Shown: positions 3,898 to 62,539 of the stretch, piece by piece
How positions within the stretch are numbered: position 1 is the stretch's first letter
Layout: every line of letters starts with the position of its first letter
Source: a virus
DNA length: 64,000 nt
Direction: 5' to 3' (one strand)
Virus genome (UHGV): UHGV-0197549
Notes under the pieces: model-generated
Told to the model about the DNA's origin: nothing
The model's database searches: none
What the model saw: the letters and a program-made list of their open reading frames with translations, nothing else
Position numbers and translations under genes: made by a program

Positions 3898-5238
3898 TTG
3901 TTAAATAACTCTAAATCTATGCATGTAAACACAGAAGGCTCGTTTAACCGCGAGTTATTGGAAAGCATCTTCCGCACCTCGAAGAAAACCATTCAGGAAT
4001 ATGTGCGCGAAATCGAGCGCAACAACCGGTACAAGTCCGTCCGGGGAAACGTGGTGCAGGGCACGGTGCTGGATGACCGCAGTCGTTTGATTGACCTTTA
4101 CGACGCCTGCCTGCAACAGGACGCCCATATCCGCTCGGTACTGGAAACGCTGGAGTCGCAAATCCTCGGCGACCGCTATATGCTGGCCCGCATGAATGAA
4201 AAAGGAAAGTACGTCAAGGACGTGGAAGAGACACGTAAAATCCAGGGCACCCAGTTCGACAAGATCATCCGGGGCATCGTGGAAGCCAAACTCTACGGCT
4301 ACACCTTGCTTGAAATCATGCCGGAGGTTGATTCCCGCACGGGAAAGCTGGCGGAGGTGAACATCGTCGAGAGACGTAATGTGCTTCCGGAGCAACGTAC
4401 GGTCGTCAAGCGCCAGGGTATCTGGCTCCCGAACTGGAACCTGGACTCCAAGACCTACCGGAGAAACTACATCCTTATCAACTCCGGGGATTTAGGGCTG
4501 TTCTCGGCAACTACGCCCCTGATACTTGCCAAGAAGTTCACCGTGGCGAACTACGTGAATTTCAGCCACACCTACGGGCAGCCTATCATTGTAGGAAAGA
4601 GTGTGTCGGAAAGCAACACCGACCGCAAGAGGCTTGCGAATGAGATAGCCAATGCCGCCCAGAACAAGGTCGTCGTTACAGGGTTGGAAGACGAAATCGA
4701 AATCAAGGCTTTCACCATGTCCAACTCAGAGAAGATTTACACCAGCCTGATTGAGTTTGTCAATAAAGAGGTAGCCAATCTAATTCTGGGTTCTGAATCC
4801 ATGGCGGGCGGGATGCAGAGCTATGTCGGTTCCACCAAGGCGCATCAGGATATTTTCCGGGAGCGCATCGAGGTATACCGCCGCTACATCGAAAACATAT
4901 TCAACGAAGAGGTGTTGCCGCGCCTGGTGGCAATGGGCTATATCAGGGACGGACTGGAGTTCAAGTACTCCAACCGCATCGAGATGAACAATGAGGACCG
5001 TATCAAGCTCTACGGGCTGATTACCGACAAGTACGAGGTGGCTCCGGACGAAATAGAGAAAGAGTTCGGCATCATCGTGGGCAAACAACTGAACCTGCTG
5101 GAAATGGATATGGGAATGGACAAGGAGAAGAAAGGCAATACCCACGACAGGCACATCATGTCCGAGGAAGAGTATTATCGCAGGTACGGTCACGGGCGGA
5201 GCAGCAACGTGGCGTCTTTTCTGATGGGGAGCGACTAA
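3898..5238 (+). CDS. portal protein (Mu gp29-like / DUF935 type)
   Basis: 446 aa, first gene of morphogenesis operon, immediately followed by Mu-F-like protein; size and position typical of DUF935 portals. Confidence 0.65.
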   Translation: MLNNSKSMHVNTEGSFNRELLESIFRTSKKTIQEYVREIERNNRYKSVRGNVVQGTVLDDRSRLIDLYDACLQQDAHIRSVLETLESQILGDRYMLARMNEKGKYVKDVEETRKIQGTQFDKIIRGIVEAKLYGYTLLEIMPEVDSRTGKLAEVNIVERRNVLPEQRTVVKRQGIWLPNWNLDSKTYRRNYILINSGDLGLFSATTPLILAKKFTVANYVNFSHTYGQPIIVGKSVSESNTDRKRLANEIANAAQNKVVVTGLEDEIEIKAFTMSNSEKIYTSLIEFVNKEVANLILGSESMAGGMQSYVGSTKAHQDIFRERIEVYRRYIENIFNEEVLPRLVAMGYIRDGLEFKYSNRIEMNNEDRIKLYGLITDKYEVAPDEIEKEFGIIVGKQLNLLEMDMGMDKEKKGNTHDRHIMSEEEYYRRYGHGRSSNVASFLMGSD

Positions 5239-5258
5239 GCGGGAACCCGCTCCCCGAC

Positions 5259-6086
5259 ATGGAGAACGTATCCGCCGCCCGGACCCGGTTGAAAGAAGAC
5301 GGGGCAAAGGAGGAATACCCGCTTGTCCTTGCCGCCTTCCGCCGCCTGATGGACTCGCTGGAAGACAGCGCCGAATCATGGCATATCATGGAAGAAATCA
5401 TCCTACTGCGTACCGCTTCCCTTTATTCCCGTGTACTGGAAGGTCTGAAAATGGACTTTGACACAGCGCTGGAACTATTGAGGAACCATAACGACTTCAC
5501 CACTTTACGGGAAAAAGAGGAACGGGACATATTGGTAGCCGCCATCGACAACCTCGTGGAGTTTGCCGCCGCAGAAGAATATGCCATGATGGATGATGTC
5601 CGGGAACATTCGGAAGATGAAGGCTTTGAGGATTACGAAGGCATCTGTGAAAAGTATAACCTGACGTATGGGGAAACGGAAAACGAACAGGTGTTGTATG
5701 CCGCCGGGATAACCGGATGGTGGATAAACCGGTCTTCCGATACATTGATTACCTATATGACACAGGGTGACGAGCGTGTAAGGGACTCTCATCAGGCCCT
5801 CGAAGGACTTACCTTCACTAAAAGCAACTTCCCTTCAGACCTTATCCCGCCTATTGACTGGAGATGCCGGTGCTACCTGCTTTCAGACGGTAATGAAGCT
5901 TTCATTTCCGCTTCCCTGAAAACTGATTACCGAAAGAAGGTGAATCCGGTCTTTGCGGAAAGCCTGGCGATGAAAGGCAGAATCTTCTCGGAAGCCCACC
6001 CTTATTTTACTTCCGCCTTCAGAAAGAACCGGAAGGTGCAGACAATCATACGAAAACTAAAAAACAAACTCCTATGTCGGAAATAA
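5259..6086 (+). CDS. head morphogenesis protein (Mu gpF / SPP1 gp7 family)
   Basis: 275 aa; TYMTQGDERVRDSHQALEGLTF ... PPIDWRCRCYL matches Phage_Mu_F conserved core (TQGD.RVR..H; NCRC). Confidence 0.75.
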   Translation: MENVSAARTRLKEDGAKEEYPLVLAAFRRLMDSLEDSAESWHIMEEIILLRTASLYSRVLEGLKMDFDTALELLRNHNDFTTLREKEERDILVAAIDNLVEFAAAEEYAMMDDVREHSEDEGFEDYEGICEKYNLTYGETENEQVLYAAGITGWWINRSSDTLITYMTQGDERVRDSHQALEGLTFTKSNFPSDLIPPIDWRCRCYLLSDGNEAFISASLKTDYRKKVNPVFAESLAMKGRIFSEAHPYFTSAFRKNRKVQTIIRKLKNKLLCRK

Positions 6087-10142: not shown

Positions 10143-11483
10143 ATGTTAGGAAACGTATATATCAAGGACACGGACGGCAATATCTCTTACACGGGGGCAA
10201 CCGGCAACGAGAAAGTTACAGGGTTGCTGTTTGACGTGTCCCTGCAACCGGAACTCTTTACTGCCGGTTACGGGAAAAATAACGAGAACAATGTCAAACT
10301 CAACGACGTGCTTTATGTCACTAACCGTAAATCCGCCATCAAGGACTTCGGTATAATCCAGCGAGTGAAGGCCACCGAAGACGAAGAGAACAACGTGAAC
10401 TTCTTCCACGGCATCCCGTACTACCATATCTCCGAGTTCTTCCGCTTGTCCGGCAACATCGACGGCAACGGCAGGCTGTACGTGATGTTCGCCGACTGTT
10501 CAGCCGGCTGGGATGCGGTGGATATCATGCAGCGTGCGGCAGGCGGTACTATCAACCAGCTTGGCATCTGGACGGAACAGCCGCAATGGAAGCTTAACGG
10601 CGCCGAGGAAAAGTACAACCTGAACCTCGTCAAAGGTATCAATGACAAGGTGGTGGCTTTGGCAGAGCAGAACCAGCCGCTTTCCGTCATCCTGGCAGCC
10701 AACTGTTCCAACACCGGAGCCGATACGGCGGAAGGCCTGAAAGTGGACCTGAATAAAATCCCGACCGCTATCTGTGAATCCAGCCGTACATCGGTCGTTT
10801 TCGGGCAGGCACATTCGGAACTCGTGTCCACCATGCAGAAATACAATAAGAACCATACGCCCGTAGGAGTTCTCGGCGCGGCACTCGGCTGCCTGGCACG
10901 CGCCAACGTACATGAGTCAATCGCCTGGGTGAAGCAGTTCAACCTCTTTAGTGACGACTTCCAGGCCATTGAGCTGGGCTTCGGTGACATCAACCAGACG
11001 GCGCAGGAAGAGTTCATCAGTACGAACCTGTATGAATCACTGTCCCCCACACTGCTGGATGACCTGGACGAGAAAGGATACATCTTCCCGATCAAGTATG
11101 CCGGGCTGGAGAACGGGATTTACCTCTCCAAAGACCAGACCTGTTCCACGGGTGATTACCGGACGATTGCCCGGAACCGTACCATCAACAAGTCCCGCCG
11201 TGCCGTCCGTGCCGCCCTGCTGCCTTATGTGAACGCTCCCCTGATGGTGAATCCCGCTACCGGCTTGCTTGCACCTTCCAAGATTACCGCCTTCAGGACA
11301 TTGATTTCCGACGTGCTTGCCAAGATGCAGACCTCACAGGAGATTTCCGGCTATGCGGTAACGATTGACGCCAACCAGAACGTACTTCTCAATGACACGT
11401 TGCGTATTGGATATGTGCTGGTCCCCGTGGGCGTAGCTACTAAAATCTATGTGGAAGAAGGCTTGTCCCTGACGACGAAATAA
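10143..11483 (+). CDS. putative tail sheath protein
   Basis: 446 aa followed by ~147-aa tube-sized gene, then chaperone with G/GT frameshift and tape measure: contractile-tail gene order; no sequence motif confirmed. Confidence 0.4.
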   Translation: MLGNVYIKDTDGNISYTGATGNEKVTGLLFDVSLQPELFTAGYGKNNENNVKLNDVLYVTNRKSAIKDFGIIQRVKATEDEENNVNFFHGIPYYHISEFFRLSGNIDGNGRLYVMFADCSAGWDAVDIMQRAAGGTINQLGIWTEQPQWKLNGAEEKYNLNLVKGINDKVVALAEQNQPLSVILAANCSNTGADTAEGLKVDLNKIPTAICESSRTSVVFGQAHSELVSTMQKYNKNHTPVGVLGAALGCLARANVHESIAWVKQFNLFSDDFQAIELGFGDINQTAQEEFISTNLYESLSPTLLDDLDEKGYIFPIKYAGLENGIYLSKDQTCSTGDYRTIARNRTINKSRRAVRAALLPYVNAPLMVNPATGLLAPSKITAFRTLISDVLAKMQTSQEISGYAVTIDANQNVLLNDTLRIGYVLVPVGVATKIYVEEGLSLTTK

Positions 11484-11505: not shown

Positions 11506-11949
11506 ATGGCAATAATCAATAACGTAGCCTATTCCTGGAGCATGATTACGCTCGCTTCAACCGCCCTTGGGATTGACGAGGGAAGCACGACACTCGAAGG
11601 CGTCTCCGGTATCAAGTGGAACAAGAAACGAAAGATTGAGAGCAACTACGGCATGGGCGGGCGGCCCGTGTCCCGTGGTTTCGGGAACCTTACCTATACG
11701 GCATCCATCACGATGGATTATGCTACCCAACAGATGTTACGCTCGACTTACGGCAGTTTGATGGACATCGGCGAGTTCGACCTTATCATCTCTTTCGCCA
11801 ACCCGATGGCATCGGATGACTGGACGACCACCACCGTGACGCTGAAGGGCTGCATTTTCTCCGAGGACGCGATGGAAAGTCAGCAGGACGATACCAACAT
11901 CACACATGAGTACGATCTGAATCCTTTCGATATCGTTATCGGTTCGTGA
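11506..11949 (+). CDS. putative tail tube protein
   Basis: 147 aa, position after sheath-sized gene. Confidence 0.4.
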   Translation: MAIINNVAYSWSMITLASTALGIDEGSTTLEGVSGIKWNKKRKIESNYGMGGRPVSRGFGNLTYTASITMDYATQQMLRSTYGSLMDIGEFDLIISFANPMASDDWTTTTVTLKGCIFSEDAMESQQDDTNITHEYDLNPFDIVIGS

Positions 11950-11963
11950 AGTCCCTTTAATTC

Positions 11964-12800
11964 CTATTTGGAAATCGCATCCTTTCGGTGCGGTTTCTTT
12001 TTTTTATGATGAAGCACTCTTCCTCTAAATTTATGCAGTTCAGTGCTTTTAACCCAAATACCATTAAACTTAGGATGAACCAAAACAAAAAAAATGAATA
12101 TTAGGACACATAAAAATGATAAGATTATAAAGCCAGGGACATACTTTTCAAACCAAACTTCATCCAATTGAAACTTATTTATATGCATAAAACAATGGAT
12201 TATAAAAGCAACGCACCATATAACAAACGAAATTTGGCCTATTGCAATATTTATTTTGGATGGAGAGTAAGCTCCACCTTGGCACTTAAAAATACAATCA
12301 TTTATATCTGTGGCATTGTATCCTTTTAAAAGCTGATACTGAAATCCTCCTATAGGTAATTTGTTTATTCCGGAATTAAGAACTTCGCCATTTACCAAAC
12401 TTTCATCACATTCAAAAGCATCAATAGCATGTTCATACCTCTCATACCAAGCTTTCGAACCTTTGGCCATCATAATCCAAAGAGAAGAAAATATAATATT
12501 AACTAAACATAGTACGAGAGCTATATTATTTAATATATAGGCTGACGGTGACACTACATATTCTACATTATCAAATAGTTTTATTGTAACAACTCCATAT
12601 CCGGTAAAACATAAAACAAGTATAGTCGTTAGAAATATAGAGCGTTGCCAAAGATGTGACAATTCAAAATCCCGACATCTCCATAAAGAATCTCTTATAT
12701 CCTTAGTTGTTATCTCAGAATTAAGAACAATATTATCAGTATTAATGGTGTATTTCAGTTTGCTTTTACTGCATTTTTCTCTTTTACTTCTTTTCCTCAT
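11964..12800 (-). CDS. AT-rich hypothetical membrane protein (4 predicted TM helices)
   Basis: 278 aa; ~30% GC versus ~53% backbone; hydrophobic segments IFLTTILVLCFTGYGVVTI, ILNNIALVLCLVNIIFSSLWIM, ISFVIWCVAFIIHCFMHI, FIILSFLCVLIFIFFVLV; last gene of umuD-umuC string. Confidence 0.55.
   Translation of the reverse strand: MRKRSKREKCSKSKLKYTINTDNIVLNSEITTKDIRDSLWRCRDFELSHLWQRSIFLTTILVLCFTGYGVVTIKLFDNVEYVVSPSAYILNNIALVLCLVNIIFSSLWIMMAKGSKAWYERYEHAIDAFECDESLVNGEVLNSGINKLPIGGFQYQLLKGYNATDINDCIFKCQGGAYSPSKINIAIGQISFVIWCVAFIIHCFMHINKFQLDEVWFEKYVPGFIILSFLCVLIFIFFVLVHPKFNGIWVKSTELHKFRGRVLHHKKKKPHRKDAISK
11972..12008. terminator. putative bidirectional terminator
   Basis: imperfect hairpin AAATCGCATCC-TTTC-GGTGCGGTTT followed by TTCTTTTTTTT; overlaps the last codons of the minus-strand gene. 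Confidence 0.35.
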
Positions 12801-12857
12801 ATTATTTATGATATATATTTTTACAAATGTAAATATATACCATTTTTATTAGAACAG

Positions 12858-14117
12858 CTAATAAATTTCAATAAAATCATCCGGATTCGTTGTATATTGC
12901 TTTGACAAATACTCACTTTTCAGTGCCCATTTCTTCCCGGTTCCCTGTGCCGCTACCTTCAATATTCTCGTACCATATTTCTTATGCACCATATCCAGTA
13001 CTTCAAGTACCTTCTCATGTTTTAATCTGTCACGTTCATCAAACAGATTCAGTTGGACGCTGTTTTGTGGTTCAATATCCATTACGATCACTCCTGCCTT
13101 TTTATACTGATACCCTTCCTTATATATATTCTTCAGTGCCAATCTTGCATAATGGATCAACTCTGCCACGTCATTAGTCGGTGTCGGCAAGGTTATCATC
13201 AGACTATTATAATACTGGGGTAAATCCTCCCGGAACCGGTTGGTATAAATAAAGACCTGGAGCATTCCGGTGCAGGAACGTTGCGCACGGAGTTTCCTGG
13301 CACAGGACGCCATGAAATTAGCTACGGATTCCATCAGAGTATCAAAGTCTTCTATCATCTCCCCGAAGCTCCGGGAAGTGCAGATGGTTTGTTTGGCAGG
13401 AGCGACAGGTTCCAATTCAAATGCCGGGATGCCTCTTAACTCTTTCCATGTCCTGACACCTACCACAGTCATTTGCTTTCTTACCCATTCTTCACTTTTT
13501 TGTGTCAGGTCATAAGCGGTTTTAACACCGTAATATTCAAGTTTCTTCTGGTAACGGCGTCCAATCCCCCAGACATCGGCGATATCAAATTGTTTGAGAG
13601 CCTTTATCCGCTTTTCTTCGCTGTCAATTACACATACGCCTTTATAACCTCTGTATTTCTTTGCAAATTTCGACGCCACTTTCGCCAATGTTTTTGTTGG
13701 TGCTATGCCCATTGATACGGGTATGCCGGTACCTTTTGTTACAGCCTTAACTATCTTGCTTCCATATTCGCCCAGATCATAGTTTTCAAATCCTTTTAGA
13801 GAAAGGAAACTTTCATCTATCGAATATATTTCCATATCTTCAACGAACTGGCTTAGAATCGTCATAACCCTGTGCGACATGTCCCCATATAACGCATAAT
13901 TACTGGAGAAAACGGCAATTCCATGTTCCTCTATCAGTTTAACCAGTTTGAATACCGGTTCGCCCATAGGTATACCAAGCGCCTTTGCCTCATTGCTTCT
14001 CGCTACGACGCATCCATCGTTATTACTTAATACGATAATTGGTACATCCTTCAAATTCGGTTGGAACACCCTTTCGCAAGATGCAAAAAAGTTATTGCAA
14101 TCGACTAATGAATACAT
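12858..14117 (-). CDS. umuC: translesion DNA polymerase V catalytic subunit UmuC (Y-family)
   Basis: 419 aa; MYSLVDCNNFFASCERVFQPNLKDVPIIVLSNNDGCVVARSNEAKALGIPMGEPVFK closely matches the E. coli UmuC N-terminus (ALCDVNAFYASCETVF...VVVLSNNDGCVIARNAEAKALG). Confidence 0.85.
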   Translation of the reverse strand: MYSLVDCNNFFASCERVFQPNLKDVPIIVLSNNDGCVVARSNEAKALGIPMGEPVFKLVKLIEEHGIAVFSSNYALYGDMSHRVMTILSQFVEDMEIYSIDESFLSLKGFENYDLGEYGSKIVKAVTKGTGIPVSMGIAPTKTLAKVASKFAKKYRGYKGVCVIDSEEKRIKALKQFDIADVWGIGRRYQKKLEYYGVKTAYDLTQKSEEWVRKQMTVVGVRTWKELRGIPAFELEPVAPAKQTICTSRSFGEMIEDFDTLMESVANFMASCARKLRAQRSCTGMLQVFIYTNRFREDLPQYYNSLMITLPTPTNDVAELIHYARLALKNIYKEGYQYKKAGVIVMDIEPQNSVQLNLFDERDRLKHEKVLEVLDMVHKKYGTRILKVAAQGTGKKWALKSEYLSKQYTTNPDDFIEIY

Positions 14118-14120
14118 ATT

Positions 14121-14573
14121 TTATCCCCTTTTCTTTCTTCTGTTTTCCTTGATCGTATGAGTTACGATACCCCAAACAATAAATTGATTATTCTCCGTTA
14201 CCTTTATCGAAGGATAATCGGGATTGGAAGGTACCAGCCATACAGTTTTCTTTCTTCTGTCTATTTTGACCCGTTTGAGTGTAAACTCTCCGTCCAGAAA
14301 GCAAACACATAAATCACCATCCTCCAAATCCAGCGATTTATCTATTATTAATAAATCACCCGGCTCTATCCCTTCGTCTTTCATCGAAAACCCTTTCACT
14401 CTCCCGATAAAGCTGGATGCAGGATTCTTTATAAGTTCCCTGTTCAGATCATAGCTTAGCTCCATGTAATCCTGCGCCGGTGAGGGGAATCCCGCTTGAA
14501 TCCCATCATCAGCGTAAGGTAATAATTGTTTGCTTGAAGCATCAATCCTGAATATTTCGAGCCAATTCTTCAT
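14121..14573 (-). CDS. umuD: UmuD-like S24 self-cleaving peptidase
   Basis: 150 aa; IQAGFPSPAQDYMELSYDLNRELIKNPASSFIGRVKGFSMKDEGIEPGDLLIIDKS...GEFTLKRVKI ~ E. coli UmuD ([39 protein letters not shown]...GEFTVKKL); Ala-Gly cleavage site and Ser/Lys dyad present. Confidence 0.85.
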   Translation of the reverse strand: MKNWLEIFRIDASSKQLLPYADDGIQAGFPSPAQDYMELSYDLNRELIKNPASSFIGRVKGFSMKDEGIEPGDLLIIDKSLDLEDGDLCVCFLDGEFTLKRVKIDRRKKTVWLVPSNPDYPSIKVTENNQFIVWGIVTHTIKENRRKKRG

Positions 14574-14827
14574 CTGAAAGTGTTTTCGAAGATAACAATC
14601 CGGATTGAAATTTGATTCATGCTTAGGTATTATTGTGCTTCATTTACGAAATATTGATAAACGTTTCCTTCCAACTCTTAAAGGATTATCTGCATACACT
14701 AATACATTCGGGTATGAACTTACCAACAACCGCATCGGGAAGGAATCGAAAGTCCGATTCAACCTTTTCTGATTTGTTCCCCTATACTTGGAAAAGAACA
14801 TTAACCAATCTACAACCAACTTTTATT

Positions 14828-15184
14828 ATGGAAGACAAATCACTCACGCTCGAACTGGAAGCGCAGATCAAGGAAACAGCCGGCAAGCTCAAAGCGGAAA
14901 AGAAACTGAGAAAAATCTATCCGCTGGTCGTGTTCGGTGACACCTCCTGCGGTGAAAAAGAGGTATACGTTGCCTATATGTCGGAGCCTACCTTCCCCCA
15001 GTTCTCCAAGTTTATGGTCGCCTCCCGCAAGGACGAGGTGATGGCGATGAAGACGCTTGCCAAGGACTGTTTCGTCGATGGAGACAAGGAACTGGTGGAT
15101 AACGAAAGCCTGTTCCTGTTCGGCCTGATGGGGCAGCTCACGGAAATCATCTCCACCCGCCAGAGCACGCTGGTAAATTTATAA
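14828..15184 (+). CDS. tail assembly chaperone (G-like, zero-frame product)
   Basis: ~118 aa from ATG 14828 (ORF-track ORF extends upstream without support); ends TAA 15182-15184 directly after slippery A_AAT_TTA. Confidence 0.55.
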   Translation: MEDKSLTLELEAQIKETAGKLKAEKKLRKIYPLVVFGDTSCGEKEVYVAYMSEPTFPQFSKFMVASRKDEVMAMKTLAKDCFVDGDKELVDNESLFLFGLMGQLTEIISTRQSTLVNL

Positions 15185-15523: not shown

Positions 15524-18500
15524 ATGACCCAAATCAAAGATTACCAGGTAAATTACAGCATTAACGTCACCGCTACCGAAGGCGTGCAGGAAGTCGAGAA
15601 ATTCGCCAAGGCGATGAAACAGCTCAGTGACGCCCGCAGCAACTTCATGCCGGCAGTCAATAGCGTCAATGACATGATGCAGCACATCGACAAAGTGTTC
15701 CGCCCCAAGGGCAGGAAGCGGGAATATACCTATAAGTTCGACATCGACACCGGTAAAAGCGAGAAGAAGCTGGAAAGCATCAAGGCGCTACTGACGGATA
15801 TCAAGGAGCTCACAACCGGTATCAACGTGGTCATCAACGCCGGGCAGAAGCTCGACACCAACACCATCCGCTCACAGGCAAAGGCGCTGGTGGGCAAGAA
15901 AGAACTGGAAGCGCAGAAGAGAAGCATCCGCAAGACCGCCTCCCAGTCCCTGAAAACGGTCAATGAGAAACAGCGCGAGGTTACCGGTGTGATCGGCAAA
16001 ATCAACTCCGCCCTTACCAGCCTGGAAGCCGGACGTGAAATCAATATCAGGACCGACGCGGCCAAAAACCGCCTGACGGAAATACTCGGCCTTCTCAGGC
16101 AGATAAAGACGGCATCCGATATCAATATGCCCTTCCGGATGGGTAGCGGCAAAGGAACATCTCCCGCCACTACACCCTTCCAGACCGGCTCCATCCTGAC
16201 GGACAAGGTATGGCAGCGGCAGCAGAAACAGGTTGCCAAAGCCGGTGAAGCCCGCACGATGCGGGAGATAGAAGCCCGGCAGGAAGCGGAATACCAACAG
16301 AACATACAGAAGAAGAAGGATGCCTTCAGGCGTACGAACGAGTGGCTGGAGCGCAGGGCAAAAAATTACGAATACTACGAACGGGCGAAGGTGGAACGTG
16401 TCCTGAAACAGGAACGGGAAGAGGAACGCCGGCAAAAGCGTGAAGCCGCCGGGGCCGCCCGCCGCAAACGGGAACAGGAACGGGAAGAGAAGCGGAACGT
16501 CATGAACTCCGTGCGGAACATGCAGAGGCAGGCCGCCGCAGGTGAAAGCGCCTATGGCGGCAAACGGCGTGCGGCCATCAACCGCCTTCAGTACTCCCGC
16601 CGCCCGTCCATCCGCAGCCTGCCGTTGGTGAACATGTTCAATGCCTACATGGCATACGGGTTCATCAAGTCCGAACTTTCCTCCGCCGTGGATTACAGCA
16701 ATATCATGGAGTCCGCCCGCAGCATCCTCAAGGTGGCTGACAGCGACCTCTCCACATTTGAGACACGCTTCCAACAGATGTCCTATAACGTGCGGAAGAT
16801 CGGTGTGGACACCAAGTTCACCGCCTTGGAGATTGCTTCGGCAGCGAAGTTCCTCGCCATGGCGGGCATGGACATCGCCACCATCAACGCTTCCATGCGC
16901 CCCATCAGCAACCTGGCGCTCATAGGCGACAACGATGTGGGGCTTATCGCCGACTTGACAACGAACATCATGTCCGGCTATAATATCCAAAGCGGCAGCA
17001 TGGGCACCGTGGCCGATATTATCACCTCCACCATCTCCCGTGCGAACGTGAACGTGGTCGAGATGGCGGAAAGCTTCAAGATGGCGTCGGGATACCTGAA
17101 GCTCTCCGGCGTGGACTTTTCCGAAGCAGCGGCGGCTATCGGTATCTTAGGCAATGCGGGCATGAAAGGCACCATGGCGGGAACCGCCCTGCGTGCGATG
17201 TCCACCCGCTTCGCCAAGCCTACCAAACAGGCGGAAGCCACACTGGACAGGCTCGGTGTCAAGTTTACCCGATTCACGGAGATAGCGGGCAAGAAAGTGG
17301 AAAAGCTCCGTCCGCTGGCAGAGATTTTCAAAGACCTTCACGATGCCGGGGCGAGTCTGGAAGATATGATTGCTATTTTCTCAAAGATCGGCGGCAACGC
17401 GGCGATGCAATTCGTGGTGAACTACGACAAGCTCCGGGTACTCACCACGCAGAACCGCGCTTCACACGGCATCTCCGACGAGCTGGCGCTTGTCAAGCAG
17501 AATACGACCAAGGGGCTTTGGGCACAGGTGACATCCACCCTGACGGAAAGCTTCATGCAGGCGTATGAGGTCGTAGAGCCCGTTATCAAAAGCATATTGA
17601 AGGACTTCCTGAGTAAGTTCAAGGCTCCGGAGTTTGCACGGGGCATCGCCTCTATCGGGCGGGCACTGCTGGATGTCTGTTCCGTGCTGGCTAACCTGGG
17701 TACATGGATGGCCCGTAACTTCCACTGGATAGAGCCGCTATTGTTCACCGGCTTTGTCGCTACGAAGATATTCAAACTGGCGGGCGCGGTAACGAACCTG
17801 GGTGTGGCCATCGGCTTTATCGGCAAACAGTCCGTCGCGTCTTCCACGCTCCAGCTTATCGCTTCCCTGACAGGCGGCGGTATCAATGTCAAAGCTTTGT
17901 CCTTCGCCAACAAGCGCAACATTGTCACCGCCCTGCGCGGGGCGGGAATCACGGGTAAAGGGGCCATGATGCAGGCGCTCGCCTCTACCGGCATGGCGGG
18001 GATGGGCGGTCTGACCGCACGCAGCGCCTTTACCTCCCTTTTTGCCAACCAGGTGGTGACCGGAACAGGCATCACAGGAGCCGCCGCCTCGTTGTCCGCC
18101 ATGGGTGCGGGCGCGGTGGCGGCTACCGCAGGCATTGCCGCACTGGTCGGCGCGTTGGGATGGGTCGCTTACAAGACCTGGCAGGTGAAGAAAGCCAAGG
18201 ATGCCGTACTGGAAGAGGTCAATGCCAACGAGAAGTACCGCTATCCTTCCATAGAAGCCCTGCACAACTCGCTACGGGATACATACCTCCAGGCTATCAA
18301 GACCAAGGAGGCGGTGGCGAACGTGACGGAAGGCAAGACGCTGGAAGAGGAATCCGGACAGAAAATCGGCGCGTTCACCGGTGAATGGTGGAGGGCGATG
18401 CTCTCCGGAATGGCAGCCGCCCAGACACATTCGGCACCCGATTATACCTATGATGACGCCTACCAGAAGAATGCGAAGGATGCTATCAACATCATCGCAC

Positions 18501-19351
18501 GCAAGAGCGGGCAGCAGCAGATCATTTCCGCCTATGCGGAGTTAGGCAAGCTCTCCAGCGCTGTGGAAGTAAGCGCATTTATAAAGAACATCGACCATAA
18601 CTACAGGTATAACACCAAGCTGTTGGACAAAAGCCTGTACACGGTAAGAAACGGGCGGGTGTTTTACAATCCCGGCATGGACAGGATTACCGCCCGCCAG
18701 GCCGCGCAGACCCCGCACTTTGCGGGCTACCAGAACACCGAGGTCGTGCGTTCCATCCGTGTCGGTGCGGAAAGCTACCTGGACGCCATACGGTCACAAC
18801 CGGGTGCCATGAAAAGGCTGCGGGAGAGCGGGTTCAGCTTTACCGAGCTGGGCAAGGAGGGGTTCTATATGAAGGACGGGAAATGGCAGCAGAAAGAAGC
18901 CGGAAAAGACGCGACGGAGGAAGAGGTCAGCAACCTGTTAGCCGCCAAAAGGCGTGTACGGGGCAGGCTTATCGAAATGATGAAGACGCTCCGGGAGAAG
19001 TATGGCGGCAGCGAGCAGATGGCGGAGAACATCATCAAAAAAGCGGGGTTCGACACGTCTCTCTATTCCAATGAACCGGGGTATAACGACAATCCCCTGG
19101 ATGCCCTGCGGGTGACTACCGACGGGGCGGATGACGGGATGGCCGGCGGTAACTATTCAGGGACAGGCAAGCTTTCATCCGCCGCACCCAAGCAGGTCAT
19201 CGTACAAATCACCAACCTTCTGAGCGTGGGAACCATCGACCTGATGAAGTCCCCTGAAGGACAGCAGGGGGAGATAAAAGACCTGAAAGAACAACTGGCG
19301 CAGGCACTGATCGACGTGGCGCATGACTTTGACGCATCATGGAATGCATAA
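15524..19351 (+). CDS. tail tape measure protein
   Basis: 1275 aa; Arg/Glu/Lys-rich coiled coil N-half, Gly/Ala-rich hydrophobic stretches (TM-like) in middle; directly downstream of frameshifting chaperone. Confidence 0.8.
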   Translation: MTQIKDYQVNYSINVTATEGVQEVEKFAKAMKQLSDARSNFMPAVNSVNDMMQHIDKVFRPKGRKREYTYKFDIDTGKSEKKLESIKALLTDIKELTTGINVVINAGQKLDTNTIRSQAKALVGKKELEAQKRSIRKTASQSLKTVNEKQREVTGVIGKINSALTSLEAGREINIRTDAAKNRLTEILGLLRQIKTASDINMPFRMGSGKGTSPATTPFQTGSILTDKVWQRQQKQVAKAGEARTMREIEARQEAEYQQNIQKKKDAFRRTNEWLERRAKNYEYYERAKVERVLKQEREEERRQKREAAGAARRKREQEREEKRNVMNSVRNMQRQAAAGESAYGGKRRAAINRLQYSRRPSIRSLPLVNMFNAYMAYGFIKSELSSAVDYSNIMESARSILKVADSDLSTFETRFQQMSYNVRKIGVDTKFTALEIASAAKFLAMAGMDIATINASMRPISNLALIGDNDVGLIADLTTNIMSGYNIQSGSMGTVADIITSTISRANVNVVEMAESFKMASGYLKLSGVDFSEAAAAIGILGNAGMKGTMAGTALRAMSTRFAKPTKQAEATLDRLGVKFTRFTEIAGKKVEKLRPLAEIFKDLHDAGASLEDMIAIFSKIGGNAAMQFVVNYDKLRVLTTQNRASHGISDELALVKQNTTKGLWAQVTSTLTESFMQAYEVVEPVIKSILKDFLSKFKAPEFARGIASIGRALLDVCSVLANLGTWMARNFHWIEPLLFTGFVATKIFKLAGAVTNLGVAIGFIGKQSVASSTLQLIASLTGGGINVKALSFANKRNIVTALRGAGITGKGAMMQALASTGMAGMGGLTARSAFTSLFANQVVTGTGITGAAASLSAMGAGAVAATAGIAALVGALGWVAYKTWQVKKAKDAVLEEVNANEKYRYPSIEALHNSLRDTYLQAIKTKEAVANVTEGKTLEEESGQKIGAFTGEWWRAMLSGMAAAQTHSAPDYTYDDAYQKNAKDAINIIARKSGQQQIISAYAELGKLSSAVEVSAFIKNIDHNYRYNTKLLDKSLYTVRNGRVFYNPGMDRITARQAAQTPHFAGYQNTEVVRSIRVGAESYLDAIRSQPGAMKRLRESGFSFTELGKEGFYMKDGKWQQKEAGKDATEEEVSNLLAAKRRVRGRLIEMMKTLREKYGGSEQMAENIIKKAGFDTSLYSNEPGYNDNPLDALRVTTDGADDGMAGGNYSGTGKLSSAAPKQVIVQITNLLSVGTIDLMKSPEGQQGEIKDLKEQLAQALIDVAHDFDASWNA

Positions 19352-56410: not shown

Positions 56411-57005
56411 CCTGAATAAAATTCTTCTCCTGATTGCCCTGGGACTTGGGGTAACAACTTACACCTTATATAACTGGGGCAACAGGATGAAAGAAGAGAG
56501 GAATACCTACCGTAGCAATACACATGCGTTACTTGCGGATGTAGAGCATGTCCGGATGGATTCGGCAATGATGGCATCCACTATTCAGGTTCTCAACCTA
56601 TCACTGGATGAATTTGAAAAGTACCGGGCGGAAGATGCAGCAACCATTAAGAAGATGGGGGTACGCATCAAAGACCTGGAAGCTGCCGGAAGGCACGATG
56701 TGGAAGTCAATGCTCCGGTGGATGCTACAGTGAAAGATACGACAGTCGTCAGAGATACTACAACAATTATTGTAAAGGCGGTGAAGATGGATACGCCATA
56801 CCTTAAACTGAACGGTATCATTGAAGACAATTATCTGAAAGGAAACATCCACTTACCGGTGCATCTGCATCAAGCATTTTGGGTAGAATACAAACACCGC
56901 TTTCTCTGGTGGCGATGGAAAGTAAAAGCAATACACCAGACAATCTCAAGCGACAATCCGTATGTCGAAATTAAGTATACGGAGATCATTAATTTAAAGA
57001 ATTAA
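56391..57005 (+). CDS. membrane-anchored coiled-coil protein
   Basis: 204 aa; N-terminal TM ILLLIALGLGVTTYTLY. Confidence 0.4.
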   Translation: MMMMKINLNKILLLIALGLGVTTYTLYNWGNRMKEERNTYRSNTHALLADVEHVRMDSAMMASTIQVLNLSLDEFEKYRAEDAATIKKMGVRIKDLEAAGRHDVEVNAPVDATVKDTTVVRDTTTIIVKAVKMDTPYLKLNGIIEDNYLKGNIHLPVHLHQAFWVEYKHRFLWWRWKVKAIHQTISSDNPYVEIKYTEIINLKN

Positions 57006-57009
57006 TCTT

Positions 57010-57228
57010 ATGTTATTCAGAAAATCATTCCAAACCCAAATCAACGGTGCAAACCGGGTATTCACAGCAACAGTAGAGAAGTTGAAAAACATTCAGGCGG
57101 ACATCACTGCCAGAGTTGAAAAGAATCACGCTAAAGTTCAGAAGCTAACCAGCGAGAACGAAGAGCTGGAAGACATGAAAGCCAAAGCAGGACGACAAAT
57201 CGAAGAAATCAGTAAATTCATTATCTAA
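57010..57228 (+). CDS. small coiled-coil protein
   Basis: 72 aa. Confidence 0.3.
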   Translation: MLFRKSFQTQINGANRVFTATVEKLKNIQADITARVEKNHAKVQKLTSENEELEDMKAKAGRQIEEISKFII

Positions 57229-57416
57229 TGGCAGAAATAGATTGCTACGAGCACCAGCTATTCGATGCAAGGTGGCTCAACGGTTACAGCATTCCGTACT
57301 ACAATACGCATATCAACAAGTATTACGCCAAGTCCATTTATGATGGTAACATCGTAAAGCGGTCTTATAGTGATACATTGTGGGAACTGAGACGGAAGAT
57401 GAGAAATTACCGATAA
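57228..57416 (+). CDS. small hypothetical protein
   Basis: 62 aa. Confidence 0.3.
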   Translation: MAEIDCYEHQLFDARWLNGYSIPYYNTHINKYYAKSIYDGNIVKRSYSDTLWELRRKMRNYR

Positions 57417-57423
57417 AGGTTTA

Positions 57424-57446
57424 AGGGGCTTCTCAAACAGATGCCC
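57424..57446. terminator. weak hairpin between convergent genes
   Basis: GGGGC-N13-GCCCC; poor U tract. Confidence 0.25.
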
Positions 57447-57462
57447 CATTCTCAATATAGGA

Positions 57463-58926
57463 TTAAGATTTCCCATACTTTCTAAAAGCCGAAACCACTT
57501 GAAATATTCCATAAGCTATTGCCACTTTACCTAATAAAAAAAAGACTGTCCCTAATATAAGACTAAGATTTGAACTATTCATTTGATAAAGTTCGGCTAA
57601 CTCATTTAATCCATCTGGCAACCACAAGTATTGTATAGCAGTGTTCCAGTAATTACTGTCAAATAAAAGCCATATACAATTCTCTTGGAATGGAAATGCA
57701 ATTCCTTCCTTAGACATAATAAAAACGGAATAGCATAAATGCCAAACAATAACAGTAAATAAAACACCTGTTATCCAACTTAGTCCAAAATTATTTGAAA
57801 GCCTGTTCAAATTAAGCAAGATCAGATCACTACATGTCTTTTCCCCTAGTTTTAAAGACTTTCTATATGCATTCATCTCATTAGATTTAAAGATTAGTGC
57901 GTGAGGGCGATTCATGTTTTCTTCCATACAACATTTCAATTGCCTAAAAATTTCTTTCTGTTTTCTCCAATAATTAACGTTCTTTGGAGTTTCTTGGATA
58001 TTTAACTTTTTTGCATCAAACCAGTGAACATTGATTATGGTTAGATTTATCAGGACACTAGCCTCTATCTTTATGTTATTAAAAGAATTAAGATCACAGT
58101 TTAGGAAAGACGTGTTCCCGAGATTTGAGTTCCATATTTTTAATTCGCTATTTAATGTTTGATTAGAATGAAGCGACTGAAAAATCACAGTAGCTTCATT
58201 AATAAAAGTGTCAAATGTGAGCTTACAAGTATCAATGTTATTGAATTGAATATTAGCACTATAATTAAATCCTTCTAATGATATCTTATCTGATACCGAC
58301 ATTCCTTCAAAAGAAATATCACCAACAAGGCTTTTAGCCGTTATTATTTTTATTGTATCAAGAAGTTGTTTTTCTTCTTTATCCCCGCCATTAAATCTTA
58401 CCTTATCACAAAATTCTGATTTTTCAATAAATATTTGTTTAGCACCTCCTTTTACCTCAGCTTGTCCGTTATCACATTCGTTAATTGTTACTTTTTGTTT
58501 AAAAATGCCTCCTATAATACTTAAATTTTGACATTTTATAGCAGTTATAATAAACTCGTCATCATATCTACCATTGTTAAAAGTGATGCTTCCAGACAAT
58601 GTACCCCTCCATAAATAAACATCCTTTGCAAATATTGTATTAATGAACGTATAGTTAGCAGCATCCACTGATTCTAATCGAACTTTTCCCAATATGCTAG
58701 AATCAAGAAAATCAAGTCCAATAGACTGTATTTTAGTATTACTTATCAAAAGACTATTATTAATTTGTGATCTATCAATAATAAATCCATTATAGAAGCA
58801 TAATAAATATTCAATATAAATATCATCAACATTGGTTTCTTCTAACATTATTCCTCTTTTAAAAAATGTTGGATATACTTTGGATCCATTAGAAGTGCCT
58901 CTTATATCTATTTTTTTATGAGACAT
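57463..58926 (-). CDS. pentapeptide-repeat-like beta-helix protein with C-terminal 2-TM domain
   Basis: 487 aa; ~30% GC; hydrophobic residue every 5th position over ~300 aa (e.g. SNLGNTSFLNCDLNSFNNIKIEASVLINLTI); C-terminal TM helices WITGVLFTVIVWHLCYSVFIM and LSLILGTVFFLLGKVAIAYGIFQVV. Confidence 0.5.
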   Translation of the reverse strand: MSHKKIDIRGTSNGSKVYPTFFKRGIMLEETNVDDIYIEYLLCFYNGFIIDRSQINNSLLISNTKIQSIGLDFLDSSILGKVRLESVDAANYTFINTIFAKDVYLWRGTLSGSITFNNGRYDDEFIITAIKCQNLSIIGGIFKQKVTINECDNGQAEVKGGAKQIFIEKSEFCDKVRFNGGDKEEKQLLDTIKIITAKSLVGDISFEGMSVSDKISLEGFNYSANIQFNNIDTCKLTFDTFINEATVIFQSLHSNQTLNSELKIWNSNLGNTSFLNCDLNSFNNIKIEASVLINLTIINVHWFDAKKLNIQETPKNVNYWRKQKEIFRQLKCCMEENMNRPHALIFKSNEMNAYRKSLKLGEKTCSDLILLNLNRLSNNFGLSWITGVLFTVIVWHLCYSVFIMSKEGIAFPFQENCIWLLFDSNYWNTAIQYLWLPDGLNELAELYQMNSSNLSLILGTVFFLLGKVAIAYGIFQVVSAFRKYGKS

Positions 58927-59210
58927 TTTTTAAAGACAATTGAATTAGCTGGATTAAACTTAAGGAACTCTTCTGTGTCTTCTTTGATTTTGCAGTTATA
59001 AAAACAAACTTCTTTTTCAAAGGTGCAATTTTCAAAATAAACCCAACTACCAAGGGTCAAATTTGCGAATATTACAGAGCTACAAAAACGACAGCCTTTA
59101 AAAGTGAAACTATGATATTCATTATCCTCAAACTGAACAGTAGTAGTGTATGTCTGATTTTCTTTTTGATATTTATTCATGTTATTCGTATTTTTCTGTG
59201 ATATGTTCAA
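58908..59210 (-). CDS. small pentapeptide-repeat-like protein (possibly N-terminal fragment of downstream gene)
   Basis: 100 aa; FKGCRFCSSVIFANLTLGSWVYFENCTFEKEVCFYNCKI 5-residue periodicity; overlaps downstream ORF start by 19 nt in another frame. Confidence 0.4.
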   Translation of the reverse strand: MNISQKNTNNMNKYQKENQTYTTTVQFEDNEYHSFTFKGCRFCSSVIFANLTLGSWVYFENCTFEKEVCFYNCKIKEDTEEFLKFNPANSIVFKKCLIKK

Positions 59211-59260
59211 AGTTAACTAGTAATATCTGCAAAGATACAGTATTTAAAATGTCTGTCTAA

Positions 59261-60082
59261 TTAATTATACATGATGTTTTCACTTCTACTTTTGTAAAGG
59301 TGGGGTGTTGGGGGAACTTTTCCAATAGTATCAATTAAATTAGTTTTTTGTATATTAGTGTATTCCTGTAGTAAAACTTTAATTTCTTCCAACTCTTTAT
59401 TTTGCTTTTTAATATATTCATCTGATGTGTTGTTATTGGGAAAAACCGTAAAGATGTATATCAATAGCCCACTTAGTCCAACAGTAAGCACCCATTTGAA
59501 TACTTCTTGACTAAAACTGTATAATTTAGATTTTTGATAATCACTGCCAACTGAATAACTCTTAAAATTTCGAAGTTTCCAGCATCTATATTTATCAAAT
59601 AGTGAAGGAGAACCATCAATTGAAGTACATTCCATATATGAATTTAAGTAATTCCATTGTTTTTTGAGAAATGATATATCATTAAGTTTCTTAGGATGAA
59701 TGTAATCTTCTACAAATATGGCAGATTCAATAGATTTAGTATATGGAGTACTGGAAGGATGTAATATTATAGCAACATATCCGTGATCGTTAAGATGGAA
59801 TGCTAAAGTAGCTCCATTTTCAACCAAAAACTCCTTATTTGTTTTTAAATCTTTAGTTATTGTTATTTTTTCATCATAAGAGCTGGCCCCATAGAATACT
59901 TCAGCAATTCTGTTATTAACAGCCCCATTTCTTCCCTTAGGGCAAACGCAAAGCATATATATATCATCTAATTTATTATATTTTTGATCATCTGCCTTAA
60001 ATTTCTTAAATACAGCTTCAATTTTTGACGTTTGAAACTCTTGAAATAACCTCACTCGATCTAACCTAGTGTCTTTTGTCAT
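59261..60082 (-). CDS. hypothetical membrane-anchored protein (one TM + C-terminal coiled coil)
   Basis: 273 aa; ~30% GC; TM WVLTVGLSGLLIYIFTVF; first gene of minus-strand island after AT-rich divergent promoter region. Confidence 0.5.
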   Translation of the reverse strand: MTKDTRLDRVRLFQEFQTSKIEAVFKKFKADDQKYNKLDDIYMLCVCPKGRNGAVNNRIAEVFYGASSYDEKITITKDLKTNKEFLVENGATLAFHLNDHGYVAIILHPSSTPYTKSIESAIFVEDYIHPKKLNDISFLKKQWNYLNSYMECTSIDGSPSLFDKYRCWKLRNFKSYSVGSDYQKSKLYSFSQEVFKWVLTVGLSGLLIYIFTVFPNNNTSDEYIKKQNKELEEIKVLLQEYTNIQKTNLIDTIGKVPPTPHLYKSRSENIMYN

Positions 60083-60251
60083 AATAATATGGATTTATGT
60101 TTTTTGTTGATTAATGCCATAAAGATAATAAACATAAAAATAACTACATATTATTTCATATATTTATTTATAAAGCATTTTATAATTGTTTGTTCCCTCT
60201 TTTATAGTGTATTCCCCTATACTTTCCTATATAACCTAAATCATGTAAATA

Positions 60252-60695: not shown

Positions 60696-62539
60696 AAAGT
60701 TGGTCCCACCTAAGAACCTTCACATCGACTTCAAGCCTTCACCTAAACAGTATGAACTCTGGAAACTACTCCAGCCTGAATGCCCGTTATGTGGAGGTGA
60801 AATCGAACAGAAGCTGATAGGCTACGACACCAATCACAACCCCAAGTATAAGCCGCACTGCATCAAGTGTGGCAATTCCAATATACCGCAACTCATTCTG
60901 GGTGGCGGTGCCGCTGGTAAACGATTCCTCTGCCAGCCTATGCAGTAATGCATAGAAAACAATCTCTTTAATTGCTGGAAACTCTGACCGCATAATGGCG
61001 AAGACAATCAGCAGCCAAGCCGGTTCAGCCGGAAGGTTCAACGGCTATCCGAAAGGAGTACGGTCAAGCGACCGGAAATGGGAGACTCCTTAGTCAGCTA
61101 AGGATGAAGATATAGTCTCATCTGCATGGAAACATGCAGCAGCGAAAGCGGTCACACCGTAGCGAAGTGTGGCGAAGAAATACCAAATGGGTGGAAAATC
61201 GTATTTGGCAAGTGTTTGGCTTGTGAGTAGTTGTATTAGATTTCCGGATGTGCGTGCAATAGTGGCGAGAAAGACGTTGAAATCTTTAAAGGAAAGTACC
61301 TGGAATACAATCCGTATGATTATTAAGGGCTGGGGGCTCGTTGAAGATGTGAACTATCATATTAACAGCGTAGCCGGAACTCTTCGGTTTTGGAATGATT
61401 CAGTAATTCTGATGCTTGATTTAGCCGATTTACCCTCGGACCCAAATTTCGAGCGTTTTGGTTCAATGGAAGCAACGATTGCGGCATGTGATGAGGTTTC
61501 GGAAGTTAGTCAGAAAGCAATTGAAGTATTGTTTTCTCGTTTACGATGGAAGACACACGAGACATTCAAAGTTTCTAAAATGCTCCTTACAACCAATCCG
61601 ACAACCAACTGGGTAAGAACCCGATTCGTACAAGACGAAAACGGAGACAAGACAGTTACACGTGAAGGTGAGTTTTATGTTCCCTTCAGTGTATTCGACA
61701 ATCCCGACATCGCCTTCCGCCAAACCTACGAAGCCGCTCTAAACAAGATCAGCGACCAGGCAACGAAAGAGCGACTACTTTACGGTAACTGGGACTTTGT
61801 AGAGGCAAACGACATGGCGCTCTACAATCAGTTCGACGGGACCAGGCATTTGATTACCGGACTGAAAGAAAAGGTATATGACCCAACTAAGCCGCTGATC
61901 GTTGTGTGGGACTTCAACGTTGCACCTTATATGTCTACCCTGTTAGTTCAGATTGACTACGACAAGAAGAAGGTATATATTATCGAAGAGATACTGGGAA
62001 AGGCAGAGGATAAAGAGAATAACACACCATCACTCGCCCGAAAAATCAAAAAGAAGATGTACCGTCAAAAACACATCGGAGGCTTGGATATAACAGGCGA
62101 CCCAGCCGGACTCCAACGTTCAACCACCAACGAAGACGGCGTGAATAACTATACGATAATAAATGAGACGTTGGGCAAAGGGATACTGCGCCCAAAAATC
62201 AAACTCCTGAAGAAGCAACCGCCACAGGCACCACGTTGTGAGTTTGTGAATGAAGTTTTCAAAGGTTACAACGGTTGGGAAATAATGATTGACCTGCGTT
62301 GCCGGAAACTTACACAGGACTTAATCTATCAGCTAAAGAACGAGGACGGAAGCAAAGGAAAGCCTAAAGTAACGGACTCTAAAACCGGAGTGAAGTACGA
62401 AAAGTACGGTCACTTGTCAGATTGCCTTGATTATTTGCTTTGCTATTATCTTAGAGATGCGTGGTATAAGTTCAAGAGCGGTGACGATAGCGGCAGCATC
62501 CTTTCTACAGCTACCATTTCAGAAGGATTTAACTACTAA
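60685..62539 (+). CDS. terL: terminase large subunit, interrupted by group I intron (exon 1 60685..60918, exon 2 61190..62539)
   Basis: exon 1 ends in P-loop LILGGGAAG(K); exon 2 (LLTTNPTTNWVRTRF; VVWDFNVAPYMSTLLVQIDYD...YIIEEI nuclease-like) lacks a P-loop; splice predicted to give GAAGGGKS. Confidence 0.65.
60919..61189 (+). ncRNA. group I self-splicing intron (no internal ORF), boundaries +/- a few nt
   Basis: IGS GCCAGC (60933-60938) pairs with exon end GCUGGU (U.G at splice site); GCAGCCAAGCC (cf. Tetrahymena GCAGCCAAGUCC); P7 halves GGCUAU/AUAGUC within ACGGCUAUCC...GAUGAAGAUAUAGUCUCAUC (AAGAUAUAGUC also in Tetrahymena and T4 td introns); terminal G at 61189. Confidence 0.6.

Follow-up and report, generated by a model that had tools for sequence, protein, structure and literature searches.

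Pol V operons are known from several kinds of mobile element: mucAB, impAB and rumAB, carried by plasmids or by integrative and conjugative elements (ICEs), are LexA-regulated in their enterobacterial hosts, and phage P1 encodes HumD, a pre-truncated UmuD'-like protein without a phage UmuC partner. UmuD together with UmuC is likewise found as cargo of other phages and satellites (Escherichia phage PHB10, Salmonella phage vB_SosS_Oslo, Cronobacter phage ENT39118 and prophages of Acinetobacter), and a UmuC homolog is present in 102 GenBank phage records (PHROG families 1268 and 811). On conjugative plasmids, umuDC or mucAB mark the border of an (anti-)defence island, where their role has been called unclear (bioRxiv 10.1101/2023.02.15.528439). 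Here we describe a umuDC operon on the virus genome UHGV-0197549, analysed as a stretch of 64,000 nucleotides (nt) that we call the window. The operon is carried by what is a ~95-kb temperate Bacteroidales myovirus and lies antisense within its tail genes, in a slot that related phages fill with other cargo, including anti-phage defence genes.

Identity and conservation of the UmuD-UmuC pair

Both genes are on the minus strand: umuC (12858-14117) encodes a 419-amino acid (aa) Y-family translesion polymerase of the Pol V catalytic subunit type, and umuD (14121-14573), directly upstream and separated from it by 3 nt, encodes a 150-aa S24 self-cleaving accessory subunit in its full-length, uncleaved form. 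A reading of the DNA made without database searches (hereafter, the sequence-only reading) had proposed a UmuC/UmuD pair at exactly these open reading frames (ORFs), and the peptides that it quoted are all found in them: AGFPSPAQDY, GFSM and GEFTLKRV in UmuD, SLVDCNNFFASCERVF and VLSNNDGCVVARSNEAKALG in UmuC. Searches with hidden Markov models and BLASTP bear the proposal out, placing the pair with UmuC/UmuD and not with DinB/LexA. Thus, the 419-aa protein contains the IMS, IMS_C and DUF4113 domains (Pfam; 128, 83 and 47 bits, all over cutoff), the last of which is the UmuC-specific C-terminal domain; the UmuC model PRK03609 aligns to residues 1-416 with 421 bits, versus 166.8 bits for the best of nine DinB models (NCBIfam), and PHROG 1268 matches with 500.7 bits. 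It is 44% identical to UmuC of E. coli K-12 over its full length (348 bits), and 26% identical to E. coli DinB over 235 aa (68 bits). These scores support its grouping with UmuC, clearly not with DinB; a DinB identity was ruled out, since the UmuC model is more than 250 bits better and the C-terminal domain is of the UmuC type. When aligned to E. coli UmuC and Dpo4, the protein keeps the catalytic residues D6, D101 and E102; its steric gate is aromatic (F11, versus Y11 in E. coli), and the beta-clamp motif QLNLF occupies residues 355-359.

The accessory subunit is equally recognisable. UmuD scores 146.8 bits against the NCBIfam UmuD model PRK10276 (cutoff 110), compared with 74.8 bits against the LexA model TIGR00498 (cutoff 111) and 76.1 bits against the HumD model, under the equivalog cutoff of 120, and it is 40% identical to E. 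coli UmuD. Peptidase_S24 (residues 24-137) is its only Pfam domain, with no helix-turn-helix (HTH) domain, and the protein, unlike LexA, CI or UmuDAb, has no DNA-binding domain because only 27 residues precede the cleavage site. The Ala-Gly cleavage site noticed in the sequence-only reading is confirmed by alignment, the predicted Ala27-Gly28 corresponding to Cys24-Gly25 of E. coli UmuD; the Ser-Lys dyad is also in place, with Ser63 aligned to E. coli Ser60 and Lys100 to Lys97. From the conserved site and dyad, RecA*-dependent cleavage of UmuD is a reasonable inference. The pairing of umuD with umuC recurs in most of 80 Bacteroidota loci, and no other S24 or Y-family gene was found within the window. 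The earlier description of the pair as strikingly close to E. coli therefore needs dividing: architecture and motifs are near-canonical, but identity is just 44% and 40%, and on these alignments UmuC and UmuD are best regarded as ordinary cross-phylum orthologs of the E. coli proteins.

Both ORFs are intact and of identical length in six relatives, with ratios of nonsynonymous to synonymous substitution (dN/dS) of 0.02-0.07 for umuC and 0.04-0.08 for umuD, at dS of 0.3-2. Ratios this low amount to strong purifying selection, and the divergence matches that of the phage backbone in depth, which argues that the operon is functional and a long-term resident of the clade whose sheath proteins are at least 89% identical. 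A metagenome collection indexes the UmuC protein of the window, as an exact match, in 698 sample blocks, so the prophage is common. All of the 24 longest contigs read that carry it (up to 315 kb) show the same phage neighbourhood, as do seven independent IMG/VR contigs, which excludes the assembly chimera against which the sequence-only reading had warned. Moreover, the exact UmuC occurs on contigs of 0.2-1 Mb, which indicates an integrated prophage.

As to origin, close UmuC homologs in IMG/VR belong only to this phage family and only to this slot, and a megablast search of 12 kb against GenBank phages gave no match. The nearest UmuC proteins in species-representative genomes come from Bacteroides, Tannerellaceae, Odoribacter and Butyricimonas (63-66% identity); none in that set exceeds 66%. 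In Bacteroidales chromosomes umuD is paired with umuC amid housekeeping neighbours, among which we found no recurrent mobile-element or defence family. The nearest matches being chromosomal, paired and in a housekeeping context, we conclude that the phage copy is a captured Bacteroidales-type chromosomal operon. The notion that umuDC is generally tied to mobile elements or defence in Bacteroidales chromosomes was marked down in view of the same housekeeping neighbours.

A cargo slot between tail tube and tail assembly chaperone

The Pfam and PHROG assignments of the flanking genes confirm that umuDC lies antisense between the tube gene and the tail assembly chaperone, as had been proposed. The flanks are a contractile-tail module on the plus strand, consisting of the tail sheath gene (10143-11483; Pfam DUF2586, 94.7 bits; PHROG 907; GC content at third codon positions, GC3, 0.70), the tail tube gene (11506-11949; PHROG 4579, tail protein), the chaperone gene (14829-15184; PHROG 19076, with a weak DUF6848 match) and the tape measure gene (15524-19351; PHROG 28 and others, 150 bits), and upstream of this module are Mu-type head genes (Portal_Mu, Mu_F, Clp protease). 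In tblastn comparisons the chaperone is conserved in relatives from the ATG at 14829 (MEDKSLTLE...), which is its true start; a TTG at 14633 was rejected. Its place between tube and tape measure genes is the same in BS-TP1, a temperate Bacteroides salyersiae phage (PMC12694917) and the nearest cultured relative.

A scan with the sheath protein retrieved 30 related IMG/VR contigs of 64-119 kb (individual loci are denoted by L numbers below). Their sheath proteins are 74-99% identical to that of the window, and sheath, tube, chaperone and tape measure are conserved in all 30, with a tube-to-tape-measure interval of ~1.2-5.2 kb. By blastn, backbone homology stops at 11942-11952, so that the tube gene forms the left border of the slot; the umuDC module extends from the umuC stop codon at 12858 to ~14658-14682, and the backbone is back in the core intergenic region before the chaperone (14716-14828, plus strand), which forms the right border and holds a GAATCG-N6-CGATTC palindrome (14743-14760). 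BS-TP1, whose sheath is 43% identical, has the same gene order and an empty tube-chaperone gap of 142 bp. The variable slot of the relatives and the empty gap of BS-TP1 together argue that the island 11950-14828 is an insertion into an intergenic gap. The operon's status as a cargo (moron) locus, claimed in the sequence-only reading, is thus borne out, also by its deviant base composition: GC3 is 0.66-0.73 in the core genes, 0.42-0.44 in umuD and umuC, and 0.24 in a third gene of the slot, which encodes a membrane protein of the 8xMP family.

What occupies the slot differs from phage to phage. L001 and L002 (L001, 11914-15047) carry a class II prokaryotic Argonaute with its partner (pAgo_II, 787 bits; partner, 194 bits; PADLOC); L003 and L007 (~11870-13735) Shedu SduA (307 bits; PADLOC) and a metallo-beta-lactamase (MBL)-fold protein; L005 (9336-11931) ApeA-HEPN/PDC-S58 (182 bits) and a leucine-rich repeat (LRR)-TIR protein; and L024 (11906-14360) AbiGi (110 bits) and PDC-M36A (248 bits; both PADLOC). 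The slot also yields a ThsB-like TIR match of 56 bits (PADLOC). L006, L008 and L027 have an N6/N4 methylase there, and a more distant clade thioredoxin and Dam-like methylases. Slot proteins without a Pfam or PADLOC match are a 578-aa protein in L016, proteins of 328-335 aa in L011, L018 and L029, and pairs in L012 and L030. Some relatives hold little in the slot. From this pattern of occupancy, the tube-chaperone gap is evidently a recombination hotspot for accessory and anti-phage defence modules in this phage family, of which a limited literature search found no earlier description.

Eight loci have the umuDC operon in the slot, namely the window and seven IMG/VR contigs (L003, L006-L009, L024 and L027); it is missing from the close relatives L001, L002 and L005 and from 19 more distant ones. 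In all eight loci it takes the end of the slot next to the chaperone, and downstream of umuC, at 26-107 nt, comes a minus-strand gene that varies between loci. In L004 (12822-12856) the last 26 bp of umuC are fused to the backbone and the 8xMP gene is kept, the scar left where umuDC and its promoter were cleanly deleted (1.8 kb). The umuDC module has ATCCGGATT as a 9-bp direct repeat at both ends, which was rejected as a recombination scar: chance alone would give ~20 such pairs in 3.2 kb, and the repeat is not used at the deletion junction of L004. In four of the loci the gene directly downstream of umuC encodes an MBL-fold protein (L003, 12575-13735; L007, 12577-13713; L008 and L009, 11861-12988; all on the minus strand), with weak PADLOC matches to LmuA and to MBL proteins associated with reverse transcriptases (RT). 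Between the two pairs (L003/L007 versus L008/L009) these proteins are 57-59% identical, and the UmuC proteins beside them are ~89-97% identical to the window copy; the MBL-fold neighbour may be either fast-evolving or repeatedly exchanged.

In the window itself the slot holds three genes in two modules (umuDC with ~100 bp of upstream sequence, and the 8xMP gene), not a lone insertion. The 8xMP gene (11964-12800, minus strand), overlooked by the sequence-only reading, lies between umuC and a hairpin that follows the tube gene; its 278-aa product is a multi-pass membrane protein (Pfam 8xMP, PF24838, 72.1 bits) without a PADLOC or PHROG match. Its GC content of 0.31 (and the GC3 given above) is unlike that of umuDC; L004 has the gene but not umuDC, and five relatives that carry umuDC lack it. 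In the 57-nt gap between umuC and the 8xMP gene lies a perfect Bacteroidetes-type -7 box, TACATTTG (12824-12831, minus strand), a candidate promoter of its own. This box fits an independent module, and the distribution of the gene suggests that it was acquired separately. The family counts 860 homologs, and relatives elsewhere lie in accessory regions of Bacteroidales conjugative transposons (L127, L130-L133), where their neighbours are ArdA, RadC, DarT-Macro and restriction-modification (RM)/helicase genes, and where a conserved ~260-aa gene is often found directly downstream. In this company the protein looks like a candidate exclusion or defence effector; a literature search for 8xMP or octameric membrane protein found nothing relevant.

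The hairpin with its U-tract had been described as flanking the pair and as terminating the late operon. It is real on the plus strand, a terminator-like hairpin plus T8 at 11970-12007 (12-bp stem, 11970-11998) after the tube gene, but it does not adjoin umuC, as the 8xMP gene lies in between, and it overlaps the last codons at the 3' end of that convergent ORF. No U-tract follows it on the minus strand, and we found no clear minus-strand terminator. A similar hairpin with a T-run follows the tube gene ahead of unrelated cargo in L001/2, L004, L006, L008-12, L018, L020, L023, L026, L027 and L029; none was found in L003, L005, L007, L013, L016/17 and L030. Since most relatives have it behind the tube gene, independently of the cargo they carry, the hairpin is part of the phage backbone; and since essential tail genes follow it, it at most attenuates the late operon and cannot end it.

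Transcriptional control, proposed role and rival explanations

An upstream region of ~85-110 bp (14574-14682, minus strand) travels with umuDC: it is conserved in all eight umuDC-bearing loci, and the sequence beyond it differs among them. TAnnTTTG is the consensus of the -7 box of Bacteroides promoters, and a candidate box, TATCTTCG, is located at 14587-14594 on the minus strand (position -21 to umuD), with a perfect TATTTTTG at the homologous -21 position in L008, L009 and L027. Of 28 chromosomal Bacteroidales loci, 12 have TAnnTTTG no more than 80 nt from the start of umuD, versus 1.6 expected, an enrichment that supports the promoter assignment. A perfect palindrome of 12 bp lies just upstream of the box (CAATCCGGATTG, 14596-14607). 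It is no more than a candidate operator for some factor; the idea that it is a phage-repressor site repeated through the window was dropped, as this is its sole exact copy there. Several chromosomal loci of Bacteroidaceae and Prevotellaceae (L046, L047 and L050; ~4750-5530) are arranged differently, with ORFs of ~120 and 123 aa directly upstream of umuD on the same strand and no TAnnTTTG adjoining umuD, which suggests a longer operon in those cases.

The sequence-only reading had placed the action of umuDC in the SOS response and pointed to 14574..14827 for a LexA-type operator. We scanned the 255 bp upstream of umuD (14574-14828) for seven box types, allowing at most one mismatch. The region is without CTAA-N5-TTAG, GGA-N5-TCC, CTGT-N8-ACAG, GAAC-N4-GTTC, TTAC-N3/5-GTAA and GTTC-N7-GTTC, a set that includes the E. 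coli-type and Cheo-type boxes; one-mismatch forms of GGA-N5-TCC at 14683, 14738 and 14770 are at chance level for a 6-base dyad. Neither CTAA-N5-TTAG nor GGA-N5-TCC was found in the seven phage relatives or in the Bacteroidales chromosomal loci. Applied to control loci of Flavobacteriaceae and Chitinophagaceae, the scan did find the published motifs, with tandem GGA-N5-TCC at -50 and -30 in the Flavobacteriaceae loci as its positive control, and CTAA-N5-TTAG in L075 and L101. These two motifs are the operators of Bacteroidota LexA-like repressors, and both groups of regulators have been reported missing from Bacteroidales (PMC8565304). Likewise, a de novo search for a dyad shared by 29 Bacteroidales umuD upstream regions gave a top count of 4, versus a shuffle maximum of 5, so that no common operator emerged. 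With no LexA-type operator found and the regulators reported absent from the host order, SOS control at the transcriptional level is unsupported and was an assumption; as far as the scan tells, umuDC is not controlled by any described LexA-type operator.

We consider it probable that the locus is cargo expressed during lysogeny and supplies a working translesion system of the Pol V type. According to this proposal, a lineage of ~95-kb temperate Bacteroidales myoviruses captured a host-derived umuDC and has long kept it; in the lysogen, a Bacteroidetes-type promoter that belongs to the operon and lies ~20 nt upstream of umuD would drive its transcription. The UmuD dimer would then meet RecA filaments on single-stranded DNA and cleave itself at Ala27-Gly28 via the Ser63-Lys100 dyad; UmuD'2 would join UmuC, docked on the beta clamp via QLNLF, and the complex would copy lesions at the cost of mutations. 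The lysogen would gain damage tolerance, and possibly the phage genome too, after damage-triggered induction. Several observations count against this proposal. The 421 bits of UmuC fall 10 bits short of the curated PRK03609 cutoff of 431, an annotation threshold that is tuned on Proteobacteria and involves no biochemical criterion; the -7 box of the window, TATCTTCG, has one mismatch; the LexA-type boxes, the Cheo type included, are missing upstream of umuD, as reportedly are both LexA-like regulator groups from Bacteroidales (PMC8565304); and umuDC remains low in GC content although it has long been resident, suggesting that exchange with an outside gene pool continues and that descent is not simply vertical.

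The most serious rival holds that umuDC serves the phage and not the lysogen, through lesion bypass in the ~95-kb genome at damage induction or through gene diversification. The phage is temperate, as are its cultured relatives, in whose study mitomycin C was the inducing agent (PMC12694917); long retention under strong purifying selection in a phage lineage fits a benefit to the phage itself, and the full-length UmuD would need the RecA* signal, which is also the common trigger of induction. However, umuDC is antisense to the late operon and has an upstream region of its own, the usual layout of lysogeny-expressed morons, and it is dispensable for the lytic cycle, being missing from L001, L002, L005 and the 19 distant relatives and lost in L004. 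We therefore regard a role confined to the phage as possible and on balance unlikely.

Less likely still is a functional tie to the defence hotspot, in which umuDC would buffer the self-damage of nucleases (MBL-fold, PD-(D/E)XK, Shedu) or lend its promoter, responsive to damage or infection, to the downstream defence gene. The fixed chaperone-proximal place in eight of eight loci, next to a variable minus-strand gene, would agree with such a tie, as would slot-mates from established defence families and the position of umuDC/mucAB at the border of anti-defence islands on conjugative plasmids (bioRxiv 10.1101/2023.02.15.528439). On the other side, L001, L002, L004 and L005 have defence genes in the slot and lack umuDC, a perfect -7 box precedes the 8xMP gene, no PADLOC model recognises umuDC, chromosomal Bacteroidales umuDC lacks recurrent defence or mobile-element neighbours, and co-location within a hotspot is expected of any cargo. 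We give a similarly small chance to a more far-reaching interpretation, in which the gap would be an undescribed defence hotspot with umuDC as its longest resident and fixed boundary, Pol V operons would have a general link to (anti-)defence, and a Bacteroidales damage regulator would act at CAATCCGGATTG. Finally, the polymerase could be DinB-like and its partner a repressor of the LexA/CI kind, with the prophage or the island under its control. S24 peptidases do include phage repressors, and PHROG 4 (transcriptional repressor) is a secondary match of UmuD at 84.6 bits. But UmuD is 150 aa long, lacks an HTH and has just 27 residues ahead of its cleavage site, and with UmuD models ~70 bits over LexA/repressor models and UmuC more than 250 bits over DinB this explanation is effectively refuted and highly improbable.

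If the captured umuDC is indeed active in lysogens, a widespread gut phage would give its Bacteroidales host an error-prone polymerase, and survival and mutation supply under metronidazole, fluoroquinolones or inflammation could shift. To our knowledge, no SOS regulator has been described in Bacteroidales, and the mobile, well-conserved umuDC promoter with its discrete palindrome would offer a handle on how these bacteria control mutagenic repair. Should the link to defence prove true, Pol V operons of mobile elements would be connected with (anti-)defence cargo, for example through tolerance of nuclease self-damage or through responsive read-through. The hotspot is in our view the more useful by-product, the umuDC finding itself being correct but expected: with two conserved tail genes as its borders, it is a defined place in which to look for new defence genes of gut Bacteroidales phages, the candidates being the family-less proteins of L016, L011, L018, L029, L012 and L030 and the 8xMP protein, which also lacks a PADLOC match.

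Elsewhere in the window, a group I catalytic intron (60909-61139, plus strand; Rfam RF00028, 86 bits, E 1.6e-20) lies ~30 nt upstream of an ORF with a Terminase_3 domain (61169-62539). A second low-GC patch (57000-60100; GC 0.29-0.36) contains two minus-strand ORFs, 57463-58926 (487 aa) and 59261-60082 (273 aa), with no Pfam or PADLOC match, and may be another cargo slot. Two KilA-N/ANT antirepressor-type genes are found left of the head module, one at 1729-2844 of the window and one at 5839-6660 of L125 (both on the minus strand), the phage continuing for at least 9.6 kb past the left end of the window. Neither an S24-type repressor nor a tRNA was found within the window.

Comparison with known systems

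With the chromosomal umuDC of E. coli the phage operon shares gene order, tight coupling, the catalytic carboxylates, QLNLF, the Ser-Lys dyad and an X-Gly cleavage site. It differs in having Ala-Gly in place of Cys-Gly and Phe in place of Tyr at the steric gate, in lacking a LexA box in a host order without a known LexA, and in being phage-borne rather than chromosomal. P1 HumD is also a phage-encoded protein of the UmuD family, but the window UmuD keeps its N-terminal arm and cleavage site, has a UmuC of its own, and falls well below the HumD cutoff (76 bits versus 120).

That phages carry umuDC was already known, and only the hotspot context and the regulation of this copy are, modestly, novel. 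The named phages and satellites share the UmuD plus UmuC cargo, but their proteins are only 36-46% identical to those of the window, and the closest phage records are unannotated human-faecal contigs with 48-58% identity; here, by contrast, the phage is a large one of Bacteroidales, and umuDC lies inside its tail operon at a place that defence systems also use. As with mucAB, impAB and rumAB, a Pol V operon is found on a mobile element, and the border placement of umuDC/mucAB on conjugative plasmids parallels the fixed place of umuDC at one end of the hotspot. Nevertheless, the type of element is another one, no LexA operator was found in the window copy, and the island here is one of defence, whereas theirs is one of anti-defence.

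The closest parallel to the slot itself is provided by the hotspots of P2-like phages and P4-like satellites (bioRxiv 10.1101/2021.01.21.427644), in which conserved flanks likewise enclose a variable, defence-rich slot of low GC content. The slot described here belongs to a different lineage, with Mu-type head genes and a Bacteroidales host, and lies between tail tube and chaperone; and in contrast to the P2 and P4 hotspots, it mixes minus-strand defence genes and plus-strand methylase and thioredoxin genes with a DNA-repair operon.

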